Source: an uncultured archaeon (GTDB taxonomy: Archaea; Micrarchaeota; Micrarchaeia; Micrarchaeales; CABMGC01). Taken from it: a stretch of 64,000 nt of DNA. The translations under genes and the position numbers were made by a program. Below the pieces are notes generated by a model that was not told the origin of the DNA, searched no databases, and saw only the letters and a program-made list of their open reading frames with translations. Below are positions 5,050 to 21,985 of the stretch, piece after piece. The DNA lies in assembly GCA_963729635.1 (NCBI GenBank), contig CAVSOP010000009.1, positions 64,688 through 128,687 of the forward strand, in the 5' to 3' direction. Within the stretch, counting starts at the first letter, position 1. Each line of letters begins with the position of its first letter.

Positions 5050-5074
5050 CCGTTAGCTCCGTACCCCAAAATAG

Positions 5075-5184
5075 GGTATTGTCCACAAACTCGGCTGATT
5101 TTTAGGGTGTCGCATTCGGCTGGTCATTCGGTATTGTCCACAAACTCGGCTGATTTTTAGGGTGTCGCATTCGGCTGGTCATTC
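5075..5184. repeat. Perfect 55-bp tandem duplication (2 copies) forming the left end of the low-GC element
   Basis: GGTATTGTCCACAAACTCGGCTGATTTTTAGGGTGTCGCATTCGGCTGGTCATTC occurs at 5075..5129 and again at 5130..5184. Each unit contains two TGTC..CGGCTG motifs. Confidence 0.95.
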
Positions 5185-6420
5185 CGTTATCTTGCCGTCG
5201 ATTAGGTCTTGGGCTGTTCTTAGAAGTATATTTACCCCCTCCTCGTTCTTGGCTCTGGCTACCTCTTCATACGCTCCTTTTCCAAAACTCAGGGCAACAA
5301 AATAACCCTTCTTTTTACCAGTTCTCCTCATGGCAGTCTCGAAATTATCTATTGGAATGCGCCCTATACTCTCTGTTTGTTTCACTTGAATAGGGTAGCC
5401 ACCATCTATTTGTGAGGTAGTGCCATCAATTCCCATATCCCCTGATTTTGTCCTGCTTACTGTTCCTAAGAACTTGTCAATCACAACCCAATTCTGAAAT
5501 TCAAAAGGGGGCAGATGCTTAACATAGCGTAAATCCACCTCGCCTTTTACCATCATGGCATTCATGGCATAATCTTTTCTGAGACGTTCTTTCATTAATT
5601 TACAGGCAGTTGGCGATATGTCTATGCCTATCCATTTTCTGCCCATTTTCTGCGAAGCCATAAGCGTAGTTCCGCATCCGCAGAATGGGTCAAGAACTAT
5701 GTCTCCTTTATTTGAGGATGCTTCGATGATTCTCTCAAGCAGGGGCATCGGCTTTTGCGTCGGGAACAACTGTTTTATTGGAGGAACACGACCTATCTCC
5801 CATACATCATCCATAGAGACGCCCTCGGATTCCTCATCAGCCATCTGTGCTGGAACTCTCTTTCCTGTCTTTTCGTCATAACCTGATATGATGCGTGCGT
5901 TTCCAAATCGTTTCAGCGTGGACTGCGCTCTTTCCATGAACATCTTGTTAAACACTCGTTTTTTGTCATTAGTCTTAGAGTAGAAAAATATGGTATCATG
6001 ATTATTCTGAAATTGTTTGTTTCCAGTTGACCATTTTCGGTAATGCCAGATAATCTCGTTTCTGAAATTACCCTCTCCAAAAATCTTGTCTAAGGAATTG
6101 CGTAGGTGCGAATTTGCGTGCGTATCGCAATGCAAATACATTGAGCCAGTATCTTTCAGAATTCGGTAGCACTCGGACAATCGTGGGTTCATCCAAGTAA
6201 TGTAATGTTCTATCCCACCTTCCCATCTGTCCTGAAATGACCTTATCTCAGCTTTATCTTTCCAGATTACTTCATAGTGCTTATTGCTAAAAAAAGGCGG
6301 GTCTGCATAAATAAGGTCAACGCTCTTATCGGGAAACTTGCTCATTATCTCCAAGTTGTCTCCTTCATAAATAGCATTAACCTCCATGTTTTCTATTGCC
6401 ATGCTAACCCTTTTATTCAT
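5179..6420 (-). CDS. DNA methyltransferase (N4-C/N6-A, beta class) fused to a C-terminal PD-(D/E)xK (Mrr-cat-like) nuclease-fold domain
   Basis: Motif IV DLIYADPPF precedes motif I VLDPFCGCGTT. The C-terminal GDMGIDG...YPIQVKQ is restriction-endonuclease-like. The ATG at 6420 overlaps the transposase stop (ATGA). The track ORF extends to an alternative start at 6459. Confidence 0.85.
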   Translation of the reverse strand: MNKRVSMAIENMEVNAIYEGDNLEIMSKFPDKSVDLIYADPPFFSNKHYEVIWKDKAEIRSFQDRWEGGIEHYITWMNPRLSECYRILKDTGSMYLHCDTHANSHLRNSLDKIFGEGNFRNEIIWHYRKWSTGNKQFQNNHDTIFFYSKTNDKKRVFNKMFMERAQSTLKRFGNARIISGYDEKTGKRVPAQMADEESEGVSMDDVWEIGRVPPIKQLFPTQKPMPLLERIIEASSNKGDIVLDPFCGCGTTLMASQKMGRKWIGIDISPTACKLMKERLRKDYAMNAMMVKGEVDLRYVKHLPPFEFQNWVVIDKFLGTVSRTKSGDMGIDGTTSQIDGGYPIQVKQTESIGRIPIDNFETAMRRTGKKKGYFVALSFGKGAYEEVARAKNEEGVNILLRTAQDLIDGKITE

Positions 6421-7607
6421 TGCGTAGCGGGCTGGCTGAGTTTCAAAAGACTTAGCCACCTGTTCCTCTCGTTGCCCATGCTTATCCCTGCGAGTTGCGA
6501 AGGCGTAAGTCCGTCGAATGCCTGATTAGGTCGTATGAAGTTGTAATATGTCCTCCAATTTCCGAGATACTGCTCTGTGGTCGCCTCGCTCTTGAAACCA
6601 CGCATAACCTTGTCCCTCTCCCTGAATGTGCTGTGATAACGCTCTATCAGTTGGTTATCCCGCTTCTTTGTTGCGTGAATTTGCTCTGTGAAATTCTGGC
6701 GTGAGTATTGGTTGCGGTAAGCGTTCCTCGTAAATTCCTTCCTTACCGCCTCACGATAGAATTGACCCTTATCGGTGGCTATTATGCTCGGCTCTTGCGA
6801 GATTATCGCCTTCGCCTTCTGTATTATCTTCCGAGCGTCCACTATCCTTCTCGCCTTCGTTATCTGCGTAGCGAGCAGGAAGCGGGTCTTGTGGTCGAGG
6901 GCGTTCCAGCACCATTCATTCTCTCCTTTGATGTTAAGCACCTGCTCGTCTATGTGCATTACCTCGCTGGTCTGTGGTCTTAGGGTATTCGTATAGTCGT
7001 TCATCTTCGCCATGAAGCGATTGTTCCAGCGTCGTATAGTCTCATGGTGCAGTTTCAGACCGAAACTCTGATAGAGTGTGTCCTGTATGTCCCTGAGCGA
7101 ATTGCCTTTGTAATACATATCAAGCGCAAGACAGAGTATTCTTGCATTGCCCTTTATGCCCTTCGCGGGGTCAAGGACGAAATACGACCCGCAGTCTTGG
7201 CACTTGTATCTCTGCTTAGTTCCCGATTTGTTCTTTCTCGTGCCGTCCTTGAGTATTTTCTCTGACTTGCACGAAGGACATGCTCTTTCTTCCGTTATGC
7301 CTTCTACGTCAAAGTCCTCTATATCCACCTTGTTCTTTAGCTTGTTGAACAGGATAATGGCATTTATGTGTTTACAATAAAGTCCGTTATCTTTGCACCT
7401 TTTGAGATAATCGGGACAATCGCAAGAGTAAGCGTCCAAGTGCCTGACCTTGTATTGCGTCGTGCCATCTGAGGAAGGTATAAGATAGGTGGTCTCGTTA
7501 ACCTTCTCTGGCACTCTTGTTCTTAGGACTTCGACCGCCCTCTGTTTTCTGGCTTCTGATTGCCCTGCGAGGTCTGTTTGCATTCTATCAATCCCTATGC
7601 TATTCAC
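6417..7607 (-). CDS. IS6-family-like DDE transposase with N-terminal SWIM zinc finger and zinc ribbon
   Basis: 396 aa. SWIM CDCPDYLKRCKDNGLYCKH; ribbon CPSC...CQDC; DDE region HIDE...ATDKGQFY...NQLIERYHSTFRERDKVMRGFKS...YYNFIRPNQAFDGLTP resembles IS6/IS26-type transposases. Confidence 0.8.
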   Translation of the reverse strand: MNSIGIDRMQTDLAGQSEARKQRAVEVLRTRVPEKVNETTYLIPSSDGTTQYKVRHLDAYSCDCPDYLKRCKDNGLYCKHINAIILFNKLKNKVDIEDFDVEGITEERACPSCKSEKILKDGTRKNKSGTKQRYKCQDCGSYFVLDPAKGIKGNARILCLALDMYYKGNSLRDIQDTLYQSFGLKLHHETIRRWNNRFMAKMNDYTNTLRPQTSEVMHIDEQVLNIKGENEWCWNALDHKTRFLLATQITKARRIVDARKIIQKAKAIISQEPSIIATDKGQFYREAVRKEFTRNAYRNQYSRQNFTEQIHATKKRDNQLIERYHSTFRERDKVMRGFKSEATTEQYLGNWRTYYNFIRPNQAFDGLTPSQLAGISMGNERNRWLSLLKLSQPATQ

Positions 7608-7681
7608 ATATATACTATGTTATTAAGATATATAAAGGTATCGTAGGAAGCTATATAACTTAGTATATACAAGTATATATC

Positions 7682-7849
7682 ATGCCGAGAACAATAATTG
7701 TAAAAAATGGAGAACTCCTTCTAAGGGATAAACACATTATTGGCTGGTATACTGATGAGGTTTCCGTGTTCGGGAATGGAGCAAAAATTGGTGCTAAGCG
7801 GGAGCACATCGGTAAAGTGGCTTATGTGGTGATTATGGATGGAAACTAA
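7682..7849 (+). CDS. Small transposon-associated protein (DUF2080-like, tentative)
   Basis: 55-aa ORF below the track cutoff: MPRTIIVKNGELLLRDKHIIGWYTDEVSVFGNGAKIGAKREHIGKVAYVVIMDGN. The FGNGAKI..K..IGK.v.VvI pattern recalls archaeal putative transposon-encoded DUF2080 proteins. Divergent from the transposase across an AT-rich promoter region. Confidence 0.4.
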   Translation: MPRTIIVKNGELLLRDKHIIGWYTDEVSVFGNGAKIGAKREHIGKVAYVVIMDGN

Positions 7850-8036
7850 GTTTGTAGCTGATGCAGATAAAGTTCTGACGCAGATAGAGGGATGGCGAAA
7901 GACATGGAAACATAGAAAGCCCTGTATGGATTGGGAGCGAAGTGAGAGAGCAGAGGGAATTGGCTTCTGCAAACACTATGTAGAGGCGCGTCATAGGAAA
8001 TTCAAGAGCCAAATAATCCCACTATTTCAGGTATAG
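7839..8036 (+). CDS. Hypothetical small protein (element cargo)
   Basis: 65-aa ORF overlapping the previous stop by 11 nt and co-oriented with the cargo genes. No family recognised. Confidence 0.35.
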   Translation: METKFVADADKVLTQIEGWRKTWKHRKPCMDWERSERAEGIGFCKHYVEARHRKFKSQIIPLFQV

Positions 8037-8056
8037 CAAAATGACCTATCATTTTA

Positions 8057-8089
8057 TATATCTGATTTGCATACATTATATCTGATTTG
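8057..8089 (+). promoter_or_regulatory. Two 13-bp direct repeats (TATATCTGATTTG), candidate TATA/operator sites of the wHTH gene
   Basis: Exact copies at 8057..8069 and 8077..8089, 20 bp centre-to-centre, ending 1 nt before the ATG at 8091. Confidence 0.4.
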
Positions 8090-8090
8090 A

Positions 8091-8390
8091 ATGCAGGACA
8101 GCCAGCTATTACCGAAATGGCTCGCGGGAAGATACGCGGTCTTACTCAAAGTCATAGACGGAGAGCCATTTGACTTTGATAAAGCATGTAAGGTGCTACA
8201 CAAGGCTTTTCCTAAAGACGATGAGCGCATTATTCGGCTCATGCTTTCTCAGTTGCGCAAAGCAGGCTGGATTTCCGTAGAATTCGATAAGGAGGATAAT
8301 CGAATGCGTGTCTATAAGCTTAACGACCTGCGCAACGTTTACACTCAGATAGCTGATGATATACTTGCAAATTCTAAACCCAAGAGGTAA
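8091..8390 (+). CDS. Winged-helix DNA-binding protein (putative regulator, element cargo)
   Basis: 99 aa. RIIRLMLSQLRKAGWISVEFDKEDNRMRVYKLN looks like a recognition helix plus wing. Lies immediately upstream of the TGT-like gene. Confidence 0.5.
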   Translation: MQDSQLLPKWLAGRYAVLLKVIDGEPFDFDKACKVLHKAFPKDDERIIRLMLSQLRKAGWISVEFDKEDNRMRVYKLNDLRNVYTQIADDILANSKPKR

Positions 8391-8395
8391 TAGAA

Positions 8396-9514
8396 ATGAA
8401 AGTAGAAAGAACCTCCATGAAGACTGTGTTGCGGGGAGAGAGCATCGCTCAGATTAGGATAGAGAATACTATTGTAGAGACGCCTACTCCTATGATAACG
8501 ACTACTGATGTGAACTATGCGGATGAGCTTACCAATCGATACGAGGTCGACTTGAGATACCCTCACAAAATACATGAAATAAGAGAGGCATGGTCACTCA
8601 AGAGATTACAAGGACTGACCAAATATGGAAAGCTCGGAGAGAAAATAGAATGGCTGATACAGCAAAGAGCAAAATCTCTCGCTAAGAAATTTATGTATAC
8701 GCCGATATTCAACGATGATGTTATTGTAAGCAAGGACATAGTTCTGATGATGCTCAAATTGCAGGCGGAAAGCGGTATAGAACTCATAAATCTCTCGGAT
8801 TCTCCAACGATACCCACGACGGATGCCTTAGGGCTGATAAAGGACTGTGCGAAGACTGTCCGCGATATGGGACGCGAACCTTTCTTGCAGATAAGGGCAA
8901 ACTATTCTGATACGATGTTCAAAAACAAGACTGAAGTAGCAAAAGAACTTGGACTGAGTGGTATTACTGTTATGCACTATGACCCAATCAAGTATCTTGC
9001 CAACTATAAACTACTCGCCGAACTGAGGGAAGGTGGTCTTATGCGTCACCTATCCAATATCGACAGGATATGGAGAGGGGATGGCAAATCGGCAGTGATG
9101 CCTTATGGGATGTTGTTCGCTGATACCTATTCAACTAAAATGGGACGTGGAGGGTCGAAGAAAAAGGCGGATGGTCATCCTATTAAGCCTAAGCCAAGAG
9201 TTAACGCGAGGAGATACGATTGGAATACGTCCGCACACCTTCGCATATCTGAGCATCGGCAGGAACACGGCGAAGAACTGAACTGTGGCTGCCCGATATG
9301 CATTGGCAATACTATGGCTGATGTGGTCGCAGATTACAGTAGAATTCTATATCCCGCATTCAGAACGCACGAACCATATGCTTTGCATACCTTCGCAGAT
9401 TTCGCCAGAGCACGAATGAGGGCTGGAACGCTCAAGGAATTTCTGACTACAAAGAAGTATGCTCCAAATGCACTCAAAAATGTCTTTGGAATAGGTCAAC
9501 AGGAGATTGATTAA
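8396..9514 (+). CDS. tRNA-guanine-transglycosylase superfamily protein (archaeosine-TGT/DpdA-like), element cargo
   Basis: 372 aa. N-terminal IVETPTPM (nt 8477..8494) resembles the arcTGT IETPTIMPV substrate-pocket start. The CGCPIC zinc motif (nt 9284..9301) is followed by His residues about 20-30 aa later, as in TGT CxCxxC...H. Confidence 0.55.
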   Translation: MKVERTSMKTVLRGESIAQIRIENTIVETPTPMITTTDVNYADELTNRYEVDLRYPHKIHEIREAWSLKRLQGLTKYGKLGEKIEWLIQQRAKSLAKKFMYTPIFNDDVIVSKDIVLMMLKLQAESGIELINLSDSPTIPTTDALGLIKDCAKTVRDMGREPFLQIRANYSDTMFKNKTEVAKELGLSGITVMHYDPIKYLANYKLLAELREGGLMRHLSNIDRIWRGDGKSAVMPYGMLFADTYSTKMGRGGSKKKADGHPIKPKPRVNARRYDWNTSAHLRISEHRQEHGEELNCGCPICIGNTMADVVADYSRILYPAFRTHEPYALHTFADFARARMRAGTLKEFLTTKKYAPNALKNVFGIGQQEID

Positions 9515-9529
9515 AGAGAATTTATTAAT

Positions 9530-9572
9530 CAGCCGAATGCGACAATTCAATTTACCAGCCGATTATGCGACA
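9530..9572. repeat. Right-end inverted copies of the element terminal motif
   Basis: CAGCCGAATGCGACA (9530..9544) is the exact reverse complement of the left-end 15-mer. A degenerate second copy, CAGCCGATTATGCGACA, lies at 9556..9572. Confidence 0.85.
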
Positions 9573-9620
9573 GAACCCAAAATAGGTATATTTATATATC
9601 TAAAAGAGATAATCATATCT

Positions 9621-9890
9621 ATGAAAACAATCCAAGTCCAACTAGCTCACTCTCCCACCCTGGATACCGTGCTCATGGTCGAACGCACTCTCCAGGAAGC
9701 CAAGGAGATAATAAAGATCGCGGAGTTGAAAAGGAGGCTCCCGAGGAAAGTCATGCATCAGACGCTCGTGCGCATTCTCAATTACCTCCAGGCAAGCGGG
9801 AAGATACTGATAACCACGAAAGGGGTCGTGTGGACGTACGCGCCGCCAGGCGCAATGGAGCGATTGAAGGAAAAAGGCCTGGAAATATGA
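9621..9890 (+). CDS. Winged-helix protein, putative antitoxin/regulator
   Basis: 89 aa from the ATG at 9621, with TATA-like TTTATATA about 25 nt upstream. HQTLVRILNYLQASGKILITTKGVVWTY is wHTH-like. Its stop overlaps the next start (ATGA). The track ORF starts upstream at 9507, inside the element end. Confidence 0.55.
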   Translation: MKTIQVQLAHSPTLDTVLMVERTLQEAKEIIKIAELKRRLPRKVMHQTLVRILNYLQASGKILITTKGVVWTYAPPGAMERLKEKGLEI

Positions 9891-10255
9891 ACGGACCCAG
9901 AAGGCAAATACGGCTGATCCTCACAGGCCAGGCGAAGGAGGAATACGAGCTTCTGCGCAAGGTCGTGGAGGAACAAAAGAAGAAAGGCGCCACCAACTCC
10001 GAAGAAATACAACTGCTGAAATCCATAAACAACAAATCGGAGCTGCTGAAGCTCAATCCGGTTTACGGACAAAGCATTCCCAAAGATCTAATACCGAATA
10101 CTTTGGACGTGGATAACTTGTTTCGAGTGGAACTCACCGGTTACTGGAGAATGCTCTATACGCTTAAGACGAACCAGATAGAAATCGTCAACTTTATCCT
10201 TTATATTGTCGACCACAAGGTGTACGACAAGCTTTTCGGATACCGATTCAAATAA
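9887..10255 (+). CDS. RelE/ParE-superfamily toxin-like protein
   Basis: 122 aa from the ATG at 9887. LFRVELTGYWRMLYTLKTNQIEIVNFILYIVDHKVYDKLFGY matches the RelE/YoeB C-terminal pattern (r.G.yR.iY...i.i..i.H..vY). Confidence 0.55.
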   Translation: MNGPRRQIRLILTGQAKEEYELLRKVVEEQKKKGATNSEEIQLLKSINNKSELLKLNPVYGQSIPKDLIPNTLDVDNLFRVELTGYWRMLYTLKTNQIEIVNFILYIVDHKVYDKLFGYRFK

Positions 10256-10305
10256 GGACCTCTTTCTGGAAATAATGAACAAAGTGGCCCAAGGAGGAAT
10301 GGCCC

Positions 10306-10599
10306 TTAGACCTGAACGCCCAGCACCTTAAGGAGCAGTATCGTCCCTATCCCAGGTATCCCGAAGACCGCGGTGGGCAGGAGAGTCTGCAGGGTGTAGC
10401 CCAGGCCCATCTTGAAGATGTTGTTCGCCAGGAATATGATCACTATGCCCAGCACGCTGTTGGCTATTATCCCGAAGACCGCCTTGAAGAGCAGCCTCCC
10501 CGCCTTGAAGACTATGAATATCACCGCGCACGCGGCGAAGAAGACCAGGAGCTCGAGCAGCAGCGGGCTCGCCCATGCAACGTCAAGGAGCGCGAACAT
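10306..10599 (-). CDS. BofA-like small membrane protein
   Basis: 97 aa from the ATG at 10599. Two or three TM helices and a C-terminal ...PTAVFGIPGIGTILLLKVL resembling the BofA family GIPG region. The longer track ORF (to 10836) runs through the RNase P RNA gene and is rejected. Confidence 0.55.
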   Translation of the reverse strand: MFALLDVAWASPLLLELLVFFAACAVIFIVFKAGRLLFKAVFGIIANSVLGIVIIFLANNIFKMGLGYTLQTLLPTAVFGIPGIGTILLLKVLGVQV

Positions 10600-10629
10600 A
10601 GCTTTATATGGAAAAACAAACAATAAAAA

Positions 10630-10872
10630 GGCGTGGTGTGCGGGTGGCTCACGGTCGAAAGACTGAGGAAGCTCTCTCCACGCAGAGCGTGCATGGGTCC
10701 AAGGCCCGATTCGGAACAGAAACGCAAGCGCTGGCGCACATAAAGCTATGACGCGACGAGCGTGCGCGTGCGCGTGAAACGTGCCGATGCGCACACGGTG
10801 AGCGTGCAAGGCAGATGCCGCTAAGTCGAATGCCACCTAAAACAGAAGAGAGGCTACGGCACACCACACCTT
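10630..10872 (+). ncRNA. rnpB: RNase P RNA (compact)
   Basis: P1 GGCGUGGUGUGC/GCACACCACACC. P2 GGGUGGC/GCCACC. P3 hairpin with a GAAA loop. CR-I GAGGAAGCUCUCUCC pairs with CR-IV ACAGAAGAGAGGCUAC (P4). GGAACAGAAACGCAAGCGC, GCAAGGC and CUAAGUCGAAUGCC parallel E. coli GCAACAGAGAGCAAACCGCC, GCAAGGCC and CUAGAUGAAUGAC. Confidence 0.8.
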
Positions 10873-11749: not shown

Positions 11750-12010
11750 GGCGCCCGAATTTCCGCAGAGGGAGGACTCTGCCGAAAGCCGTGCGCTGCT
11801 TCGTCAGATGCCTAATTTTTCTGCGCAAAAACGGATGGAAAGCATAAATTTAAATACCACGCCATCACATTCCATTTTGGGTATTCGGTAGGGGGCTACG
11901 GAATATTCATAGCGTTTTGGGTTTCGGCGGGTTGGGCGTTCAGCATTTCTCTGTTCTCTTTGGCCATGCCGAGCGAAAGCAAAGGGATAAGCGAATAAAA
12001 GGAGTGTAAT

Positions 12011-15000
12011 ATGGTAAATAAAACGTCCGTGTTGTTTGCGCTGGTACTGTCGCTGTTTCTGCTTATGGTTGCGAATGTCGTGCATGCGCAGGCGTTTCCA
12101 ATCCAGTCTTCTACTCCCGTAGCAAACGTGATTTATGTAGTACATCACGATTCTGATAGTGGATTTCATGGATACTGGGCACTCGATAACTATACTAAAA
12201 CAATAACCATCTGGTCCATTGGGAATGAAAATTACGTGGTGAATGCAACCTATTCTGGAATATTCTGTACGTTCGCAGGTTCTAAAAGTCCCGAGATAGG
12301 GGCAGTAGAACCCACTAGCGGATGTGGAATCATGAAGGGTGGCTACGAAGGCAATCTTACTACTTCTGCCCTCCTGAATACATCAATAGTGTCTGGCGCT
12401 ATCCAAACTCCTTCGGGAAGTCCGTTTAATTATGGAGGAACTTCAGCAAACATATTGCTGGGCGTAGGAAATCCCGACACTCCAGGTTCGTTTAATTGGC
12501 TAAATTACCTCTTTCCAGATTACACTAGCGGTTTTGCATACAGCGTCGTCAACGGAAATCCAGCTTGGAGTTGGACATACACGTATGGCGCACTGCCGTC
12601 CATATCGACTAATACAGAATGGATTAATACAGGCGCAGGCAGCACCGGAGACATAGTAGTACCACCTACCCTTGAAACTGCCTCTATCACAAGCAACGGC
12701 AAACAGATCGGCACTCTTTCCACCGGTGCTACTCTCGTAACGGATGATTCCGGTTCTTGCACTGGCTCCAACGGAGAGACCGCCGCTTGTCATACCCTTG
12801 ATGTCAGTTCCGTTAGTGTAAGCAATGGCCCGCTACCTGCGGGCTCGTGGGCATTCAATTTGCAATCAAGTTCAATAGGAACAGCTGCCTTGGAGGCATA
12901 CTTTACCGCCAAGGGGTGGCCACAGAATTATCTTACCCAAATCGATAGCGAAATTGCAGGCACTTCGCCCTTCTTTTACTTTACCTCTGACGGTAATGGT
13001 GTCTACAGTCTGACCGATGGGTTCCACTCCGCTTTGAAGTTGGGTACCGCACCACTGATGATTGACGACGACTACCCCGTCGGTACATACATCTACACTG
13101 GTGTAATCAACGGGCAGGAAGAGACAGTAACCTTGACGGTCGCTTCACCTACCCTTGAAACTGCCTCTATCACAAGCAACGGCAAACAGATTGGCACTCT
13201 TTCCACCGGTGCTACTCTCGTAACGGATGATTCCGGTTCTTGCACTGGCTCCAACGGAGAGACCGCCGCTTGTCATACCCTTGATGTCAGTTCCGTTAGT
13301 GTAAGCAATGGCCCGCTACCTGCGGGCTCGTGGGCATTCAATTTGCAATCAAGTTCAATAGGAACAGCTGCCTTGGAGGCATACTTTACCGCCAAGGGGT
13401 GGCCACAGAATTATCTTACCCAAATCGATAGCGAAATTGCAGGCACTTCGCCCTTCTTTTACTTTACCTCTGACGGTAATGGTGTCTACAGTCTGACCGA
13501 TGGGTTCCACTCCGCTTTGAAGTTGGGTACCGCACCACTGATGATTGACGACGACTACCCCGTCGGTACATACATCTACACTGGTGTAATCAACGGGCAG
13601 GAAGAGACAGTAACCTTGACGGTGTCCAGGGTGCCGACTCTCACGGTAACTGCAAGTAGCCCATCAATGACCTACGGTGGCGCGGTGCCTGTAATTACTG
13701 CGTCCTATAGTGGATTCGTGGGCAGTGACACATCTGCATCACTGACGACCCAGCCAACCTGCATCGTATCTGGCGTGCACGCTACTGGCACATATTCCAC
13801 CACCTGCTTGGGTGCTGTGGACAGCAACTATATAGTAACATATATCCCTGGCGTACTGACGGTCAACCCTGCACCACTCACTATGAGTTGCTCAATAACG
13901 ATAGTAAATAATAAAGTATATGATGGTACAACGAACGCCCCAACTGGGTGCGGCGGAGCTCTACTCTATGGCGTAATGCCTCCAGATGTCGTTGAGTTAA
14001 TGCCTGGTGGAAGTATTTTTGCAAACAATCAGGTCGGCACATGGAACGTAATTTTCTCAGGATATGCGCTCGGCGGCGCTGATGCGGGAGATTATGTTCT
14101 CGAGCCTCTTATGGCGGGAACTGCCTCTATCACTCCAGCACCGCTCACAGTCACGGGCATAACGGCAAATGACAAAACCTATGACGGCACGACGACCGCT
14201 GCGCTCGCGGGCACTGCAGGACTCTCCGGCTCCATCGTCTCGGGCGATGACGTTTCCCTCATCGGCAGTGCGGTAGGCACATTTACAAGCGCTGACGCCG
14301 GCAACGACATACCCATTACCCTCTCAGGATATTCACTCGGCGGCACCGCCGCGGGAGATTATGCCCTCCAGGCTCCGGCAATGTCTGCCAACATCGCGCA
14401 GGCATCCACGACTGTATCAATCACATCATCGGCGTCTACCTCGACATATGGCATTCCCATAACATTTACTGCAACGGTGAATCCAGCAGGCGGAAGCATA
14501 CCAAACGGGGAAACCACAACCTTCTATGACAATGGAGTCTTGATCGGAACGGGAACGACAGCAGACGGCGTCGCAACCCTTGTCACCTCAATGCTTCCGG
14601 CAGGCGCACGTCAGCCCATAACAGCAACGTACCCGGGCGATACCGACTTCTTAACGAGCACCAGCGCATCCGTCTCTCAGACTGTCAACGATGCAGCCAC
14701 AAGCGGAACGACCGAAACTGCCACTTCGGGCAACATCGTTCTTGCCTCATCGGCAGTGGGACAGGCGGACATGTCAAGTGGAGTCAACAACATTGTTCTG
14801 AACGATAATTCCGCCCTTGACCTTTCGGATTCCGTCCAGACCGCGCCAACCAGCGTTTCAATTGCTTCTAACACCGTAGACCTGACCGCGCCGCTGACGG
14901 TCGGAGGCCAGAGTGTCCAGGTTGCAAATGAGGTGCAACTTAATTCAGGAGTAACCGGAACGCCTATCAACATCACTAACTCAGCGCTTTCGGGCGTGAG

Positions 15001-16012
15001 CGTCTCCATCCCTGACGGAGCAAACATCCTTGCGCCGAGCGGCTGGACGGGAACGATCACCCCTCCTACGACCGTCACGACTTCCGGCACCGCACCTTCA
15101 GGATTCTCCGTGGGAAGCACGGCGATCGAGGTGGGCTCTTCCAACTCAATCCTGCTGCTCAGCCAGCCTGCCACCATAGTCATTCCTGGAGTGGGCGCAG
15201 TCGGATACAAACCTGCCGGATCCAGCGCATGGACGCAGATAACGAACGTCTGCGGCGGCACCTACGCATCACCCGACCTCCCGGTGTTCCCTGGCGAGTG
15301 CTACATAAACAACACTGCCGACACGAAGATCCTCTCGTATCACTTTACCACCTTCGGTTTCCTAATCGGAAACGCGGCGCCTACCGTCCCATCGACCGGC
15401 GGAGGCGGCGGCTCGACCGGCGGCGCGGTCGTGGGCGCACCCGGAGGGAGTTCGCTCCCGACGTACGCGTCCTACTCGAACGGCGACCGGATGGGCTATG
15501 AGATAGCGAACTTCTCACAGGACAACTCCGAGACGCTGACCGTCGGCGGGACCGCGTTCACCGTGGTCGAGAACTTCATAACCCCTACGTCCGCTGGCGT
15601 GACCGTGAACGGCCAGTCGCTGACCCTGTCCCCGGGCGCTCCGGTGCAGGTGCTCAACACCACCGGCATAGCGTACTACGTCGAGCTCAGCTCGGTGTCA
15701 TACCTGCCCGTACTGCAGACCGTGGCGCTGTACCTGTACGGCCAGCCCAACAACGTGACCGCCGCGCCGCAGAACGCGACTCCTTCAGGAGGCGCGCAAC
15801 CAGTGCCGTCGTCAGCATTCCCTGGCCCGGTGGCCCCTGCCCCGGTAACCACAGCGGCTCCCGCCAATACGACTGCGGCGCAACCTTCATCCGCGTCTAG
15901 CGCGCTGCCTGCCATAGCAGCGATGGGCCTTACGATTGCGACGGCGATCGCGGTCGGCATAGCCTACCAGAGAAGGAGCACAGGTAGGGCTGCTAAGAAA
16001 AGGACGAGATAA
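12011..16012 (+). CDS. Giant secreted adhesin-like surface protein (MBG/YDG-type repeats, Ig-like domain, C-terminal TM anchor)
   Basis: 1333 aa. Signal peptide ...LLMVANVVHA-QA. Two identical 161-aa repeats. MBG-like (MTYGGAVPVITASYSGFVG...YIVTYIPGVLTVNPAPLT) and YDGTT repeats. Ig-like unit TVSITSS...ITFTATV...ATYPGDTDF. C-terminal TM plus a basic tail. Confidence 0.9.
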   Translation: MVNKTSVLFALVLSLFLLMVANVVHAQAFPIQSSTPVANVIYVVHHDSDSGFHGYWALDNYTKTITIWSIGNENYVVNATYSGIFCTFAGSKSPEIGAVEPTSGCGIMKGGYEGNLTTSALLNTSIVSGAIQTPSGSPFNYGGTSANILLGVGNPDTPGSFNWLNYLFPDYTSGFAYSVVNGNPAWSWTYTYGALPSISTNTEWINTGAGSTGDIVVPPTLETASITSNGKQIGTLSTGATLVTDDSGSCTGSNGETAACHTLDVSSVSVSNGPLPAGSWAFNLQSSSIGTAALEAYFTAKGWPQNYLTQIDSEIAGTSPFFYFTSDGNGVYSLTDGFHSALKLGTAPLMIDDDYPVGTYIYTGVINGQEETVTLTVASPTLETASITSNGKQIGTLSTGATLVTDDSGSCTGSNGETAACHTLDVSSVSVSNGPLPAGSWAFNLQSSSIGTAALEAYFTAKGWPQNYLTQIDSEIAGTSPFFYFTSDGNGVYSLTDGFHSALKLGTAPLMIDDDYPVGTYIYTGVINGQEETVTLTVSRVPTLTVTASSPSMTYGGAVPVITASYSGFVGSDTSASLTTQPTCIVSGVHATGTYSTTCLGAVDSNYIVTYIPGVLTVNPAPLTMSCSITIVNNKVYDGTTNAPTGCGGALLYGVMPPDVVELMPGGSIFANNQVGTWNVIFSGYALGGADAGDYVLEPLMAGTASITPAPLTVTGITANDKTYDGTTTAALAGTAGLSGSIVSGDDVSLIGSAVGTFTSADAGNDIPITLSGYSLGGTAAGDYALQAPAMSANIAQASTTVSITSSASTSTYGIPITFTATVNPAGGSIPNGETTTFYDNGVLIGTGTTADGVATLVTSMLPAGARQPITATYPGDTDFLTSTSASVSQTVNDAATSGTTETATSGNIVLASSAVGQADMSSGVNNIVLNDNSALDLSDSVQTAPTSVSIASNTVDLTAPLTVGGQSVQVANEVQLNSGVTGTPINITNSALSGVSVSIPDGANILAPSGWTGTITPPTTVTTSGTAPSGFSVGSTAIEVGSSNSILLLSQPATIVIPGVGAVGYKPAGSSAWTQITNVCGGTYASPDLPVFPGECYINNTADTKILSYHFTTFGFLIGNAAPTVPSTGGGGGSTGGAVVGAPGGSSLPTYASYSNGDRMGYEIANFSQDNSETLTVGGTAFTVVENFITPTSAGVTVNGQSLTLSPGAPVQVLNTTGIAYYVELSSVSYLPVLQTVALYLYGQPNNVTAAPQNATPSGGAQPVPSSAFPGPVAPAPVTTAAPANTTAAQPSSASSALPAIAAMGLTIATAIAVGIAYQRRSTGRAAKKRTR
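12663..13623 (+). repeat. Near-perfect 483-bp in-frame tandem duplication inside the adhesin gene
   Basis: 12663..13140 equals 13146..13623 apart from the one difference I found (cagatCggc vs cagatTggc, synonymous). The copies are separated by 5 nt. Period 483 nt = 161 codons. Confidence 0.95.
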
Positions 16013-16021
16013 CGCTACCGT

Positions 16022-16042
16022 GCCGCAGCCGTCTGCTGCGGC
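16022..16042 (+). terminator. GC-rich hairpin just after the adhesin stop (possible terminator/RNA-stability element)
   Basis: GCCGCAG-ccgtctg-CTGCGGC, a 7-bp perfect stem starting 10 nt after the stop at 16012. Confidence 0.3.
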
Positions 16043-16213
16043 ATAGGCCCCGACTATTCCTGTCCCCATCTGCCCTGATGCGGGCACGTCTTAGGATTGC
16101 AGCATAGCCATGCGTCCCCCATGTGCGACTCGCTTAGCAGATAACCTATAAAAATCAGAAAGGATACAATATCCGTAGGCGATTAAGAAACCGAAGTGCA
16201 ATGGGAGGGCAAT

Positions 16214-17335
16214 ATGGCAAATAGGGCATCTACTTTGTTCGCGCTGGCACTGCCGCTGTTCCTGCTTCTGTCCGCGAATGTCGCGAATGCCGCTGCAGGC
16301 CCGAAAATAACCGCCGTATCCAGCATCGCGGGGATTATGGCGACAAGCGCATCCGGCGCGATCGTGAACTTCATTCTTCCGACCGCAACTGATCAGTACG
16401 GCGTGGCTCTACCCGTGTCCTGCGCGGACTCCACCGGATTGCTCACCTCGGGGTCGACTTTCCCGATAGGGACCACTACGGAGACCTGCGCGGCGACCGA
16501 CGCGCATAACGACACCGTGACGACGTCGTTCACCTTGACCGTCCGCGCGGGCATCTCGCTCCCGACTATATCGGGGACGCCTGCGGACATAACCGCCAAC
16601 GCGACGAGTCCTGCCGGCGCAACGGTGTCCTGGGCGGCTCCGAAGGCGACCGATCAGTACGGCGCGGCACTGCCAGTGTTCTGCGCGGCTCCGACAGGGT
16701 CGCTGATCTCGAGCTCCGCGTTCCCGATAGGGACCACCACCGTCTTCTGTGCCGCTTCGGACGCTTACGGCAACACCGCGAAGGCATCGTTCGCCGTGAC
16801 GGTCAGCAAGCGACCGACGTCGATATCGGTCTCGTGCGTCACGCCATTCGCATTTGGGACCGCAACGCCCTGCACAGCGTCCGTGAAGGGATACCTGGGA
16901 AGCGTGGCGGGCGAATCGCCGACCCTTCTCAGCAGCAGCATTATGGTCAACGGTGGAGGCGTGTACACAGGCACATTCACCGGATGCACCCTCGGTCCTG
17001 CCGGGTCTTGCTCGTTCACATACACCTACCCGGTCGCGGGGAGTCCATCGATATCCGCGGTATACGCCGGGGATTCGGACAACGCGGGAAGCAGCAGCCT
17101 CTCGGCGCCTTTCATGATGGAGGCGGTCGCAGCGCTGCCTACTTCTACGCTGACGGTGCAGAATGCGACGGCCGTCAACACCGTCGCCGCGCAGCCGGTC
17201 CCGGCTTCCGGTTCGCTCCCTGCGATTACGTCTACGGGCCTCACGATAGCGCTGTCAGTGGCGTTCGGCATCGCAATCGGAATGGCTTACCAGAAGAGGC
17301 GCTCAAAGGCGGCCAAGTGGAGGAAGAGGACGTAA
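16214..17335 (+). CDS. Secreted surface protein with two HYR-like domains and C-terminal TM anchor
   Basis: 373 aa from the ATG at 16214 (the track ORF starts at GTG 16196). Signal MANRASTLFALALPLFLLLSANVANA. Two repeats of ...ATDQYG(V/A)ALPV(S/F)CA...FPIGTTT..C(A)A.D resemble HYR domains. The C-terminus is homologous to that of the 1333-aa protein. Confidence 0.85.
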   Translation: MANRASTLFALALPLFLLLSANVANAAAGPKITAVSSIAGIMATSASGAIVNFILPTATDQYGVALPVSCADSTGLLTSGSTFPIGTTTETCAATDAHNDTVTTSFTLTVRAGISLPTISGTPADITANATSPAGATVSWAAPKATDQYGAALPVFCAAPTGSLISSSAFPIGTTTVFCAASDAYGNTAKASFAVTVSKRPTSISVSCVTPFAFGTATPCTASVKGYLGSVAGESPTLLSSSIMVNGGGVYTGTFTGCTLGPAGSCSFTYTYPVAGSPSISAVYAGDSDNAGSSSLSAPFMMEAVAALPTSTLTVQNATAVNTVAAQPVPASGSLPAITSTGLTIALSVAFGIAIGMAYQKRRSKAAKWRKRT

Positions 17336-17395
17336 ACGCGGTGTAGGAAGGGCCCGTTGCGGCAGCTCGCTCCCTGTGACGTCCGCGGCTTCCGC

Positions 17396-18496
17396 TCAAC
17401 GCCTCTTTCTTCCCTTTCTCGCCCTGGCCAGGCGCATCCTGTTCGCGATGGTCGTTATGTCTATGATCATCGTGACCGCGCAGGCCAGTATCAGCAGCCC
17501 GCCCGCATAGCAGAGGGTGCAGGCCGTGCCGTTCTCCATGATTATGACCGCGGTGCCAACCGAGAGGCCTATGCACGCGAAGAGGGGCGGTATCGCCGGT
17601 ATCGGGCGCTTGTAGACCTTCAGGATGGTCATGGTGGCCACGATGCCCACTATGGAGCCGAAGATCACCACCATGGCCATCGCGTGGCTGAAAGAGGCGT
17701 AGGCGCTTATCGCGGCCATCAGGGGGAGGCACAGGTCACCCTCGCCCAGGGAGATCTGCGACATCACCGGCAGCTCGCCCTTGGCCAGTATCCTCCTGCA
17801 CCTCGGGTTGCCGAGCTGGTTCTCGTCCTTGAGGCACGCCATGTAGGTCGCAATCTCCTTCTCGCTGAGCCCTCCCTTCGGCACCGCCTCAAGGTCAGAG
17901 ACGCTTATCAGGAAGGAAAGGTTGTTGGACGAGACCGCCCTGGCGAGCGTCACCATCTCCTTGGTCTTGAATACGGCGACGTAGTCGTAGACCGCCACGG
18001 CCCCCAGCAGCAGTATCGAGTACACGAACGGGAAGTTCAGCCCCAGAACCAGCCCCACCCCTATGCACGAGACGACCGTGGTGAGGTCCCTCAGCCTCTG
18101 GTACCTCTCCTTCAGGAGTATGAGCGCCATGGCCAGCACCGCCGCGTAGGCGTAGACCGCCCCGCCGGCCACGCTCCCCGGCATGGCGGTGGCGAAGACC
18201 AGGAGGAAGGCGAAGAAGGAAGTGAACGCGGTCACGACCCCCTCGAGCGCCTCGAAGAGGAACGTGTTGCTGTGGTGCCTGTGCCTCCTCAGGACCAGAA
18301 GCGCGAGTATGAGCACGATGGTCGCGTCCAGGAGGTAGGAGAACACCTGGAACCCGGGCGCCACGAAGGTGTCGTAGAGTATGGAGGTGCTCCCCGCGCC
18401 CATGGCGGCGATGGCTATCGAGACCCCCGCGAACATTACGACGATGAATATCGCGACGATCTCCAGAAGCCCCCTGTTCCCTATTACCTTTATCAT
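17396..18496 (-). CDS. Presenilin/signal-peptide-peptidase-like intramembrane aspartyl protease (A22 family)
   Basis: 366 aa, multi-pass membrane protein. Catalytic motifs AVYDYVAVF (YD) and SLGEGDLCLPL (GxGD), plus a PAL-like PIPAIPPL. Confidence 0.8.
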   Translation of the reverse strand: MIKVIGNRGLLEIVAIFIVVMFAGVSIAIAAMGAGSTSILYDTFVAPGFQVFSYLLDATIVLILALLVLRRHRHHSNTFLFEALEGVVTAFTSFFAFLLVFATAMPGSVAGGAVYAYAAVLAMALILLKERYQRLRDLTTVVSCIGVGLVLGLNFPFVYSILLLGAVAVYDYVAVFKTKEMVTLARAVSSNNLSFLISVSDLEAVPKGGLSEKEIATYMACLKDENQLGNPRCRRILAKGELPVMSQISLGEGDLCLPLMAAISAYASFSHAMAMVVIFGSIVGIVATMTILKVYKRPIPAIPPLFACIGLSVGTAVIIMENGTACTLCYAGGLLILACAVTMIIDITTIANRMRLARARKGRKRR

Positions 18497-18626
18497 CCGA
18501 ACGCACCGGTCGTTGTTATCCGTGGGACCCTAAGCTTAAAAACCCGACCTCCCGCCCCGGCCCCTCCGCGCCCGGCAAAAACGATAGATTTATATACTAA
18601 AATTGTGGAATAGACTCGGGATTGAA

Positions 18627-21862: not shown

Positions 21863-21985
21863 GCCAGGGTGGCAGAATCCGGTCAATGCGCCGGTCTTGA
21901 ACGCATAGCGTGTCAAGAGCTGATTTGTGATGCAACGAAAGCCGGTGCCCTCACGGGCTTTAGGGTTCAAATCCCTACCCTGGCG
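21863..21985 (+). tRNA. tRNA-Ser (anticodon UGA) with a ~38-nt intron at the canonical 37/38 position
   Basis: Acceptor GCCAGGG/CCCTGGC plus discriminator G. D-arm GCA..TGC. Anticodon stem CCGGT/GCCGG with loop CT-TGA-A(A). Intron about 21902..21939. Long variable arm GCCC-tcac-GGGC. T-arm TAGGG-TTCAAAT-CCCTA. No encoded CCA. Confidence 0.75.

Follow-up and report, generated by a model that had tools for sequence, protein, structure and literature searches.

The window analysed here, a 64,000-nucleotide stretch of contig CAVSOP010000009.1 from an uncultured archaeon, is a segment of archaeal chromosome with an L7Ae/S28e/L24e operon, genes for ThiI, a histone, an A-type ATP synthase and aminoacyl-tRNA synthetases, and an archaeal RNase P RNA. 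The window has about 59% GC, and a low-GC island at positions 5051-10307 has about 44%. Two parts make up the island: a 4,503-bp transposon (5075-9577) and a small segment with two ORFs (9586-10307), at whose edge the transposon inserted. The transposon has six open reading frames (ORFs): a leftward pair, in which a transposase gene is followed by a gene encoding a DNA methyltransferase (methylase) fused to an Mrr-type nuclease domain (hereafter the fusion gene), and a divergent rightward operon of DUF2080, ORF65, ORF99 and ORF372 genes (Table 1). From its sequence we classify the element as a cargo-carrying insertion sequence (IS), or transporter IS (tIS), which belongs to an IS6-like group common in DPANN-type archaea.

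The element is bounded by terminal inverted repeats of the GGnnnTGTC type, which start with GG and are imperfect, and the same octamer (CAAAATAG) flanks it on both sides. Ends of this type occur solely at 5075 (with a duplicate at 5130) and at 9577, in agreement with the initial annotation, which had found no IS-type repeats flanking the transposase alone and had supposed that the transposase serves the whole element of about 4.5 kb. The latter proposal is borne out by the inverted repeats at 5075 and 9577, by the target-site duplication and by two comparisons with other loci (numbered L001 onwards). In contigs L083 and L084 from sister strains, which represent the empty site, the histone stop codon (window position 5050) is joined straight to window position 10308, with flanks about 93-96% identical to those of the window; the whole island 5051-10307 is therefore strain-specific. 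The same element, 92.9% identical, is present in an unrelated neighbourhood on a metagenomic contig (L001), where it has its own 8-bp duplication GTCATTAG on both sides, and the blastn alignment between the window and L001 ends precisely at 9577. The GC content of the element is 44%, compared with 59% for its flanks, and its insertion into this archaeal chromosome of about 59% GC is recent. A tRNA-linked integrative element or provirus was also considered and ruled out: no integrase, border tRNA or PHROG-type content was present, while DDE-type ends and 8-bp duplications were.

The 55-bp left end is perfectly duplicated in tandem, and the element therefore has two left ends; this unit has two matches in the window, with none expected by chance, while the sister element in L001 has a single one. 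Another contig of the same strain (L085) ends within the 55-bp repeat. At both ends of the element, a second, subterminal core (TGTCGCATTCGGCTG) is found about 28 nt inward of the terminal repeat (5108-5122, 5163-5177 and 9530-9544), and a related element (L029) likewise has subterminal sites at 1934-1957 and 8716-8739 of its contig, which suggests two transposase-binding sites at each end, an arrangement that has not been described for classical IS6 elements. Nucleotide identity between the window and L001 forms a mosaic ranging from 85 to 100%: 85% for the transposase (synonymous divergence, dS, of 0.67), 93% for the methylase, 96% for ORF372, 98% for ORF99 and 100% for DUF2080. Such mosaic divergence suggests recombination between related elements. 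The ratio of nonsynonymous to synonymous divergence (dN/dS) between the two copies is 0.03-0.11 for the methylase, transposase, ORF99, ORF372 and ORF65 genes, indicating purifying selection. The AT-rich region between the two gene groups is presumed to hold the promoters of the leftward transposase-methylase operon and of the rightward DUF2080-ORF372 operon.

Table 1. Features of the transposon and of the adjoining segment (window positions; strand given where it applies).
Feature	Positions	Strand	Remarks
Left 8-bp target-site duplication CAAAATAG	5067..5074		Identical octamer at 9578-9585
Outer left-end copy	5075..5129	+	Terminal inverted repeat GGTATTGTCCACAAACTCGGCTG at 5075-5097; subterminal site TGTCGCATTCGGCTG at 5108-5122
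Inner left-end copy	5130..5184	+	Perfect tandem 55-bp unit; covers the methylase stop and last two codons
Methyltransferase-Mrr fusion gene	5179..6420	-	413 aa from ATG 6420; 407 aa from ATG 6402
Domains of the fusion	methylase N6_N4 ~5587-6321; Mrr_cat nuclease ~5203-5460	-	Pfam, NCBIfam and PADLOC matches
Transposase gene	6417..7607	-	SWIM zinc finger, IS1/IS1595-type Zn ribbon, IS6/IS240-type DDE domain; 396-aa ORF
AT-rich divergent intergenic region	7608..7681		TATA-like boxes, e.g. CTTTATATATC, GCTATATAAC
DUF2080 'transposon-encoded / transposase-associated' protein	7682..7849	+	55 aa; Pfam PF09853 2.3e-8, above cut-off; NCBIfam DUF2080_fam_acc weak
ORF65	7839..8036	+	65 aa; called gene in L001; 95% aa identity, dN/dS 0.11
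ORF99	8091..8390	+	Small protein heading restriction-modification-type operons
ORF372	8396..9514	+	Divergent protein with a probable TGT/DpdA fold; TIM barrel; zinc site C297-x-C299-xx-C302...H325
Right end	9528..9577	-	Terminal inverted repeat (reverse complement GGTTCTGTCGCATAATCGGCTGG) at 9555-9577; subterminal site at 9530-9544
Right 8-bp target-site duplication CAAAATAG	9578..9585		Read directly
Non-transposon segment	9586..10307	+	~0.75 kb, 47% GC; absent from sister strains L083/L084

The transposase is probably translated from ATG 7583 (388 aa), as in its relatives, rather than from GTG 7607. It matches the Pfam families DDE_Tnp_IS240 (5e-16, above the cut-off) and rve_3 (1e-8), with weak matches for the SWIM and Zn-ribbon parts, and in NCBIfam it matches IS6 (2.1e-34, 119 bits versus a cut-off of 125 bits) ahead of IS1 (65 bits), together with a zinc domain of the IS1/IS1595 type. 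Residues D220, D279 and E322, as well as R329, are invariant among 37 relatives, and the gene has a dN/dS of 0.107 between the window and L001. Because the IS6 score is under the cut-off and the N-terminus resembles the IS1/IS1595 type, we use the label IS6-like and do not treat membership in IS6 as proven; NCBI annotators have labelled relatives of this transposase 'IS1/IS6 family'. An equally close label may be ISMhu11, an archaeal subgroup of IS1 with elements of up to about 4.6 kb. A literature search for ISMhu11 found nothing, and searches for DPANN insertion sequences with methyltransferases and for methyltransferases as IS passengers returned nothing specific.

Hundreds of relatives of the transposase were detected, nearly all from DPANN-type archaea (Micr-, Woese-, Pace-, Aenigm- and Nanoarchaeota) and a few from Thermoplasmatales bins. 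Among the loci that could be oriented, more than 20 related elements of 2.2-6.9 kb have the same type of ends and perfect or near-perfect 8-bp duplications, and they nearly always carry passengers. GC content was compared in the window and in 19 related loci: the element is below its flanks in the window and in 18 of these loci, the exception (L003, with less than 2 kb of flank) showing no difference. A review of the IS6 family (PMC7986276, published in 2021) describes elements of about 0.8 kb with a single DDE transposase ORF of about 220-250 aa, short repeats starting with GG and 8-bp duplications, mentions one member with a passenger gene, and states that transposition in this family leads to cointegrates requiring resolution. 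The window element is like IS6 (IS26) and like transporter insertion sequences such as ISDsp3 in its IS240/IS6-profile DDE transposase, its short GG-starting inverted repeats and its 8-bp duplications. Unlike classical IS6 elements (about 0.8 kb, with one transposase of about 230 aa), however, elements of the window type span 2.2-6.9 kb, have subterminal repeat sites at their ends, nearly always carry passengers and encode a transposase of about 390 aa, which has SWIM and IS1/IS1595-type zinc-ribbon domains in addition. In three loci, transposases of the DDE_Tnp_1 type lie upstream of a methylase-Mrr gene (L088, 3751-4983; L089, 3752-4984; L094, 1648-2865); these have an N-terminal SWIM finger and cluster in BLAST with the IS6-like transposase, which suggests an N-terminal DNA-binding module common to otherwise different transposases.

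The protein encoded by the fusion gene had been described as a beta-class DPPF methyltransferase with an Mrr-cat core in its C-terminal part, and both descriptions hold. The methylase part matches Pfam N6_N4_Mtase (PF01555, 2.6e-54) over residues 34-278, and its DPPF motif (residues 40-43) stands ahead of FCGCGT (residues 246-251), the order of the beta class. In a set of 92 homologs with 43-98% identity, DPPF is present in all, motif I (residues 246-250) retains its phenylalanine in 84 and its two glycines in 91 and 92, and PTQKP is conserved. A sequence search against the PDB gave CcrM as the nearest solved relative of this part (8e-25), followed by M.MboIIA and M.RsrI; all three have motif IV (DPPF) before motif I (FxGxG), as the fusion has, but they are without a nuclease domain. 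The DPPF motif and the CcrM-like matches suggest N6-adenine (m6A) as the target of methylation. The C-terminal region of about 110 aa matches Pfam Mrr_cat (PF04471) over residues 321-406, scoring 29.8 bits (33 bits when taken by itself) where the cut-off is 21, and 17 of 17 homologous C-terminal domains match the same family (best 4e-12), while a profile of this domain found no solved structure by sequence. In the 92 homologs, E307 is conserved in 78 (Asp in 7), and D328, G330, D332, Q345 and K347 are each present in all. The Mrr motifs of LlaGI consist of a glutamate, D-x-G-x-(hydrophobic)D and Q-x-K, and mutagenesis showed its D74, D78 and K94 to be essential for cleavage (Smith et al., 2009; PMC2790908). 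The motif set of the fusion is identical to this validated set. The initial annotation had asked whether the C-terminal domain might lack the catalytic residues or belong to an unrelated fold; the profile analysis confirmed the fold family and found the catalytic residues in place, and since the Mrr-type motif set is complete, this objection does not apply. The fusion gene has a dN/dS of 0.027 between the window and L001. Its family is large, with at least 7,993 significant homologs, and the best 120 of these are full length, 53-100% identical and mostly match both PF01555 and PF04471. No characterised member of this family was found in the literature searched.

With type ISP enzymes (LlaGI and LlaBIII) and type IIG/IIL enzymes (MmeI and Eco57I), the fusion shares the presence of nuclease and methylase on one chain. 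The comparison with type IIG/IIL-like fusions offered in the initial annotation could not be upheld, however. LlaGI and the type IIG enzymes are 900-1,600 aa long, with an N-terminal nuclease, a gamma-class methylase and a separate target-recognition domain, to which LlaGI adds a helicase motor, while the fusion has 413 aa, a beta-class methylase at the N-terminus and the nuclease at the C-terminus, with neither a motor nor a separate recognition domain. Membership in type IIG/IIL was thus rejected by architecture (reversed domain order, beta class and a length of 413 aa). PADLOC assigned only MTase_II and MTase_III models to the fusion, and no REase_MTase_IIG model.

The linkage between the fusion gene and transposases is recurrent. 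We sampled the best 80 metagenomic loci by similarity to the window protein, 62 of which have at least 1.3 kb of upstream flank, and a transposase was found within 2.5 kb of the fusion gene in 24 of the 62 (about 40%, a raw share without a matched control). In 10 of those 24 loci the transposase immediately precedes the fusion gene, in the same orientation. The linked transposases are of three kinds: IS6-like with SWIM, SWIM with DDE_Tnp_1 (L088, L089 and L094) and IS1-like (L152 and L155). Furthermore, the fusion gene lies directly downstream of the transposase in three GTDB loci (L078, L082 and L004, the last with a spacer of 136 nt), upstream of the transposase on the opposite strand in another (L049), and divergent from it, within the inverted repeats, in a metagenomic contig (L090); in all five, the fusion cargo is inside or adjacent to the inverted repeats of the element. 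Seen from the transposase side, a minority of relatives carry the fusion gene.

The junction between the two genes had been taken as a case of translational coupling through an ATGA overlap. The overlap itself can be read directly in the sequence: at the plus-strand TCAT of 6417-6420, the minus-strand transposase stop TGA (6419-6417) overlaps an ATG in the methylase frame (6420-6418). As the 4-nt ATGA is the commonest overlap in prokaryotic operons, it is unremarkable in itself, and it was found only in the window element and its sister copy L001, which have an extra upstream ATG. The in-frame start candidates of the methylase are GTG 6459 and ATG 6420, 6402 and 6387. In seven independent junctions, those that could be read among the 10 loci with a same-strand transposase directly ahead, the methylase ATG is 8-20 nt past the transposase stop and aligned with ATG 6402 of the window (MAIENMEV), and the spacers often have GGAGG, GGTG or AAAGG, purine runs resembling Shine-Dalgarno sequences, ahead of the ATG. 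The true start of the methylase may therefore be ATG 6402. Coupling through ATGA is not supported, given the spacers of 8-20 nt in the seven pairs and the distance of 136 nt or opposite orientation elsewhere: tight operon packing recurs, while the overlap itself is not conserved. Of the broader proposal that the methylase is co-expressed with the transposase, what stands is its plausibility, as the two genes are on the same strand and 0-14 nt apart, and what falls is the overlap as its sign; judged from this arrangement, the fusion gene is most likely transcribed together with the transposase gene.

The rightward operon holds a second cargo module, ORF99 with ORF372, which the initial annotation overlooked; the methylase may have its real partner here. 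The DUF2080 protein that opens the operon is 100% identical in L001, and ORF65 has no family match in Pfam, NCBIfam or PADLOC. ORF99 has homologs directly upstream of ORF372 homologs in L001, L171, L172 and L174, and in L076 a homolog immediately precedes a Mod/Res-like pair, with a related transposase alongside; altogether, this position upstream of restriction or restriction-modification (RM) type genes was seen in six loci. Matches of ORF99 to winged helix-turn-helix families are all below threshold, and we consider it a candidate controller-like regulator with a possible winged helix. For ORF372, a word search among 5.8 billion proteins found three clusters of close relatives, and a full HMMER search found 118 representatives; the family is unannotated, and a gene of the ORF99 type (about 90-106 aa) always precedes it. 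The family profile matches the archaeosine TGT 1iq8 at 1.7e-5, in the stretch with the C-x-C-x2-C...H zinc site. Weak matches to Pfam TGT were obtained for 17 of 71 members, although the window protein itself has no such match. An AlphaFold (AF2) model built from the 71-sequence alignment has a pLDDT of 94.3 and a pTM of 0.92, and its top solved fold is the bacterial TGT (E-value 2e-11, TM-score 0.56), ahead of generic TIM barrels. The zinc ligands, D/E135 and D243 are conserved in the family. Going by the model and the profile matches, ORF372 is probably a TGT-fold enzyme that also acts on DNA. As modelled, it shares with TGT and DpdA the TIM barrel, the C-x-C-x2-C...H zinc subdomain, an N-terminal G-x-R...(T)P strand motif and acidic residues at the ends of barrel strands. 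It is remote from both, however (9-13% identity, TM-score 0.56), and differs from them in the ORF99-type gene that always stands ahead and in having methylases or RM fusions as company; no DpdB, DpdC or preQ0 genes were found near ORF372.

Several related loci show genes of the same functional kind. The ORF372 homolog of L171 is followed, after an ORF of 48 aa and at a distance of about 165 nt, by the gene for a plain N6_N4 methylase. In L029 (1906-8779), a 6,874-bp element with the duplication TTTATAAT, an ORF372-family gene stands beside a type IIG-like nuclease-methylase fusion, and in L045 (1190-8209) such a gene stands beside a type IIG-like protein that joins nuclease, methylase and specificity parts, with the same kind of transposase. 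An IS6-like member in L008 (4298-8678) carries a type IIG-like protein of 796 aa with nuclease and N6-methylase parts, and L076 (2254-8197) has its Mod/Res-like pair next to the related transposase. L008 and L029 are bounded by inverted repeats and perfect 8-bp duplications. Inverted repeats and target duplications were also sought in L045, L069, L076 and L171 and were not found, so the RM genes of these four loci are unproven as residents of a transposon.

That the window holds an IS6-like cargo transposon carrying passengers of the restriction-modification type is, in our judgement, very likely. What the passengers do is another matter, and here we propose only tentatively that the fusion, transcribed along with the transposase, may work as a compact RM-like enzyme, which would pay its way by defence, by being costly to lose, or both. 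The combined picture, a mobile IS6-like cargo transposon with a compact RM-like fusion that aids its host or is costly to lose, is the one we modestly favour. Under this explanation, the transposase (about 390 aa, with SWIM, Zn-ribbon and DDE parts) would recognise the GGnnnTGTC-type repeats, each backed by its subterminal copy, and insertion would generate the 8-bp target duplications; the fusion would methylate its own site on resident DNA, and the Mrr-type domain would cut DNA whose modification state is wrong. In this way the element would help its host through defence, make its own loss costly through addiction, or do both, which would explain why the fusion gene has repeatedly ridden on transposons; this repeated hitch-hiking is the one line of comparative evidence that points to such a role. 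Archaeal RM gene fragments flanked by transposases have been described before (PMC4389544). Like mobile RM units, the window element has RM-type genes within a transposable unit, a strain-specific distribution and a GC content lower than that of the host. Unlike them, it presents the fusion as a regular, tightly packed passenger in single IS units of several transposase families and not as an occasional insertion or part of a composite transposon.

A number of observations weigh against this explanation. About 60% of the sampled homologs have no transposase nearby, and the sample of the best 80 loci is biased toward the IS-borne clade. Six of the 17 C-terminal domains weakly match the 'inactive REase' family NA-iREase1. 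Classical post-segregational killing needs a nuclease that outlives its methylase, and as both activities share one half-life in the fusion, such killing does not follow automatically. Domains of the Mrr type are typical of modification-dependent (type IV) enzymes, Mrr itself cutting only modified DNA, and such a dependence would be paradoxical in a fusion with a methylase unless the two specificities differ. For the transposase, the IS6 profile score slightly under the NCBI cut-off and the IS1/IS1595-like N-terminus also count here.

The main rival explanation makes the methylase and ORF372 two halves of one system, with ORF99 as controller, ORF372 as the enzyme that attacks DNA or modifies it in a second way (as a DNA-guanine transglycosylase or a glycosylase), the methylase as the protecting partner and the Mrr domain as an accessory, for example one that senses or cuts processed DNA. 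The conserved ORF99-ORF372 gene pair (L001, L171, L172 and L174) speaks for it, as do the plain methylase near the ORF372 homolog in L171, the Mod/Res-like operon headed by an ORF99 homolog in L076, and the intact TGT fold, zinc site and conserved acidic residues. The ORF372-family genes beside type IIG-like fusions in L029 and L045, with the same kind of transposase, point in the same direction, but the neighbouring enzyme there already has a nuclease of its own. An ORF372 homolog was found in none of the 80 metagenomic methylase-Mrr loci, and the two are therefore not obligate partners. With the TGT likeness being remote (TM-score 0.56, and a window protein under the Pfam threshold) and no preQ0-pathway genes seen in the element, we hold this explanation to be unlikely, if worth keeping in view. 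It is less probable still that the protein is an orphan protective methylase, which would shield transposon-bearing DNA from restriction in new hosts as an anti-restriction aid to horizontal transfer, its Mrr-like domain being a module for DNA binding, dimerisation or reading of modification, without cleavage. Orphan methylases are common on mobile elements, and the protein has only 413 aa. Among solved structures its methylase part comes closest to CcrM, an orphan enzyme that likewise depends on a C-terminal extension, and the six weak matches to an inactive-REase family fit a domain that does not cut. The equivalents of the aspartates and lysine essential in LlaGI (D328, D332 and K347), however, are invariant in all 92 homologs, down to 43% identity, which is hard to explain for a non-catalytic domain and disfavours an orphan methylase; moreover, an IS by itself does not travel between cells.

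A role in transposition itself was also weighed, either through methylation of the ends or donor DNA that would time transposase expression, as Dam does for IS10 and IS50, or through nicking or cutting that would resolve IS6-type cointegrates. The fusion gene is packed tightly behind the transposase in 10 independent loci, and cointegrates of the IS6 family need resolution (PMC7986276). But the fusion gene occurs with transposases of three unrelated types, in some cases on the opposite strand or at a distance of 136 nt, and it often has no transposase near it at all. Most members of the IS group also transpose in its absence, the 2.2-kb L003 among them. We consider such a role very improbable.

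Cargo-carrying insertion sequences and mobile RM genes are already known, and what the window adds is two uncharacterised protein families. Insertion sequences are usually viewed as minimal parasites with nothing but a transposase, and IS6 as a family of 0.8-kb elements, while the IS6-like elements of the window type routinely carry DNA-modification and restriction genes in DPANN archaea. These tiny symbiotic archaea with reduced genomes live by contact with other archaea, which probably favours both DNA exchange and conflict. The fusion of about 400 aa, captured by several unrelated transposases, offers a compact model of how mobile elements gain from epigenetic marking, be it by defence, addiction or protection during transfer, and may yield a small new restriction-type enzyme. 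The TGT-fold family (118 clusters, all without annotation) is a concrete place to look for a new activity on DNA, be it base exchange or that of a glycosylase. A far-reaching generalisation, which we put forward as speculative and rather doubtful, would make the IS6-like transposons of DPANN archaea dedicated vehicles of RM genes with two uncharacterised cargo systems: a minimal beta-methylase-Mrr protein of about 400 aa as a standard passenger of at least three transposase families, and a DNA-acting TGT-fold enzyme, a DNA-guanine transglycosylase or 'restriction glycosylase', with a small regulator. If this were true, a mobile system for defence or addiction, separate from the Dpd system already known, would have taken over the base-exchange fold that serves in tRNA modification.

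Around the transposon, several further features were recorded. The adjoining segment 9586-10307 has two overlapping ORFs, 9621-9890 (89 aa) and 9887-10255 (122 aa, ending in ...YIVDHKVYDKLFGYRFK), neither of which has a family match in Pfam, NCBIfam or PADLOC; the arrangement looks like a pair of the toxin-antitoxin type. The short archaeal RNase P RNA (235 nt, 10633-10867, plus strand; Rfam 91 bits versus a gathering score of 84) overlaps the 5' part of a long ORF call on the opposite strand (10306-10836); the 129-aa form found in sister strains probably represents the real BofA-like gene. ARAGORN reported no tRNA across the 64-kb window, while Rfam matched a tRNA of 123 nt at 21863-21985 (plus strand), presumably one that contains an intron. 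Near the transposon lies a second strain-variable locus, in which window positions from about 11750 to 18580 are missing from sister contig L083. This region includes ORF 12011-16012, which encodes a secreted or surface-type protein of 1,333 aa with a long, near-perfect internal duplication (PTLETASITSNGKQIGTL... occurring twice).

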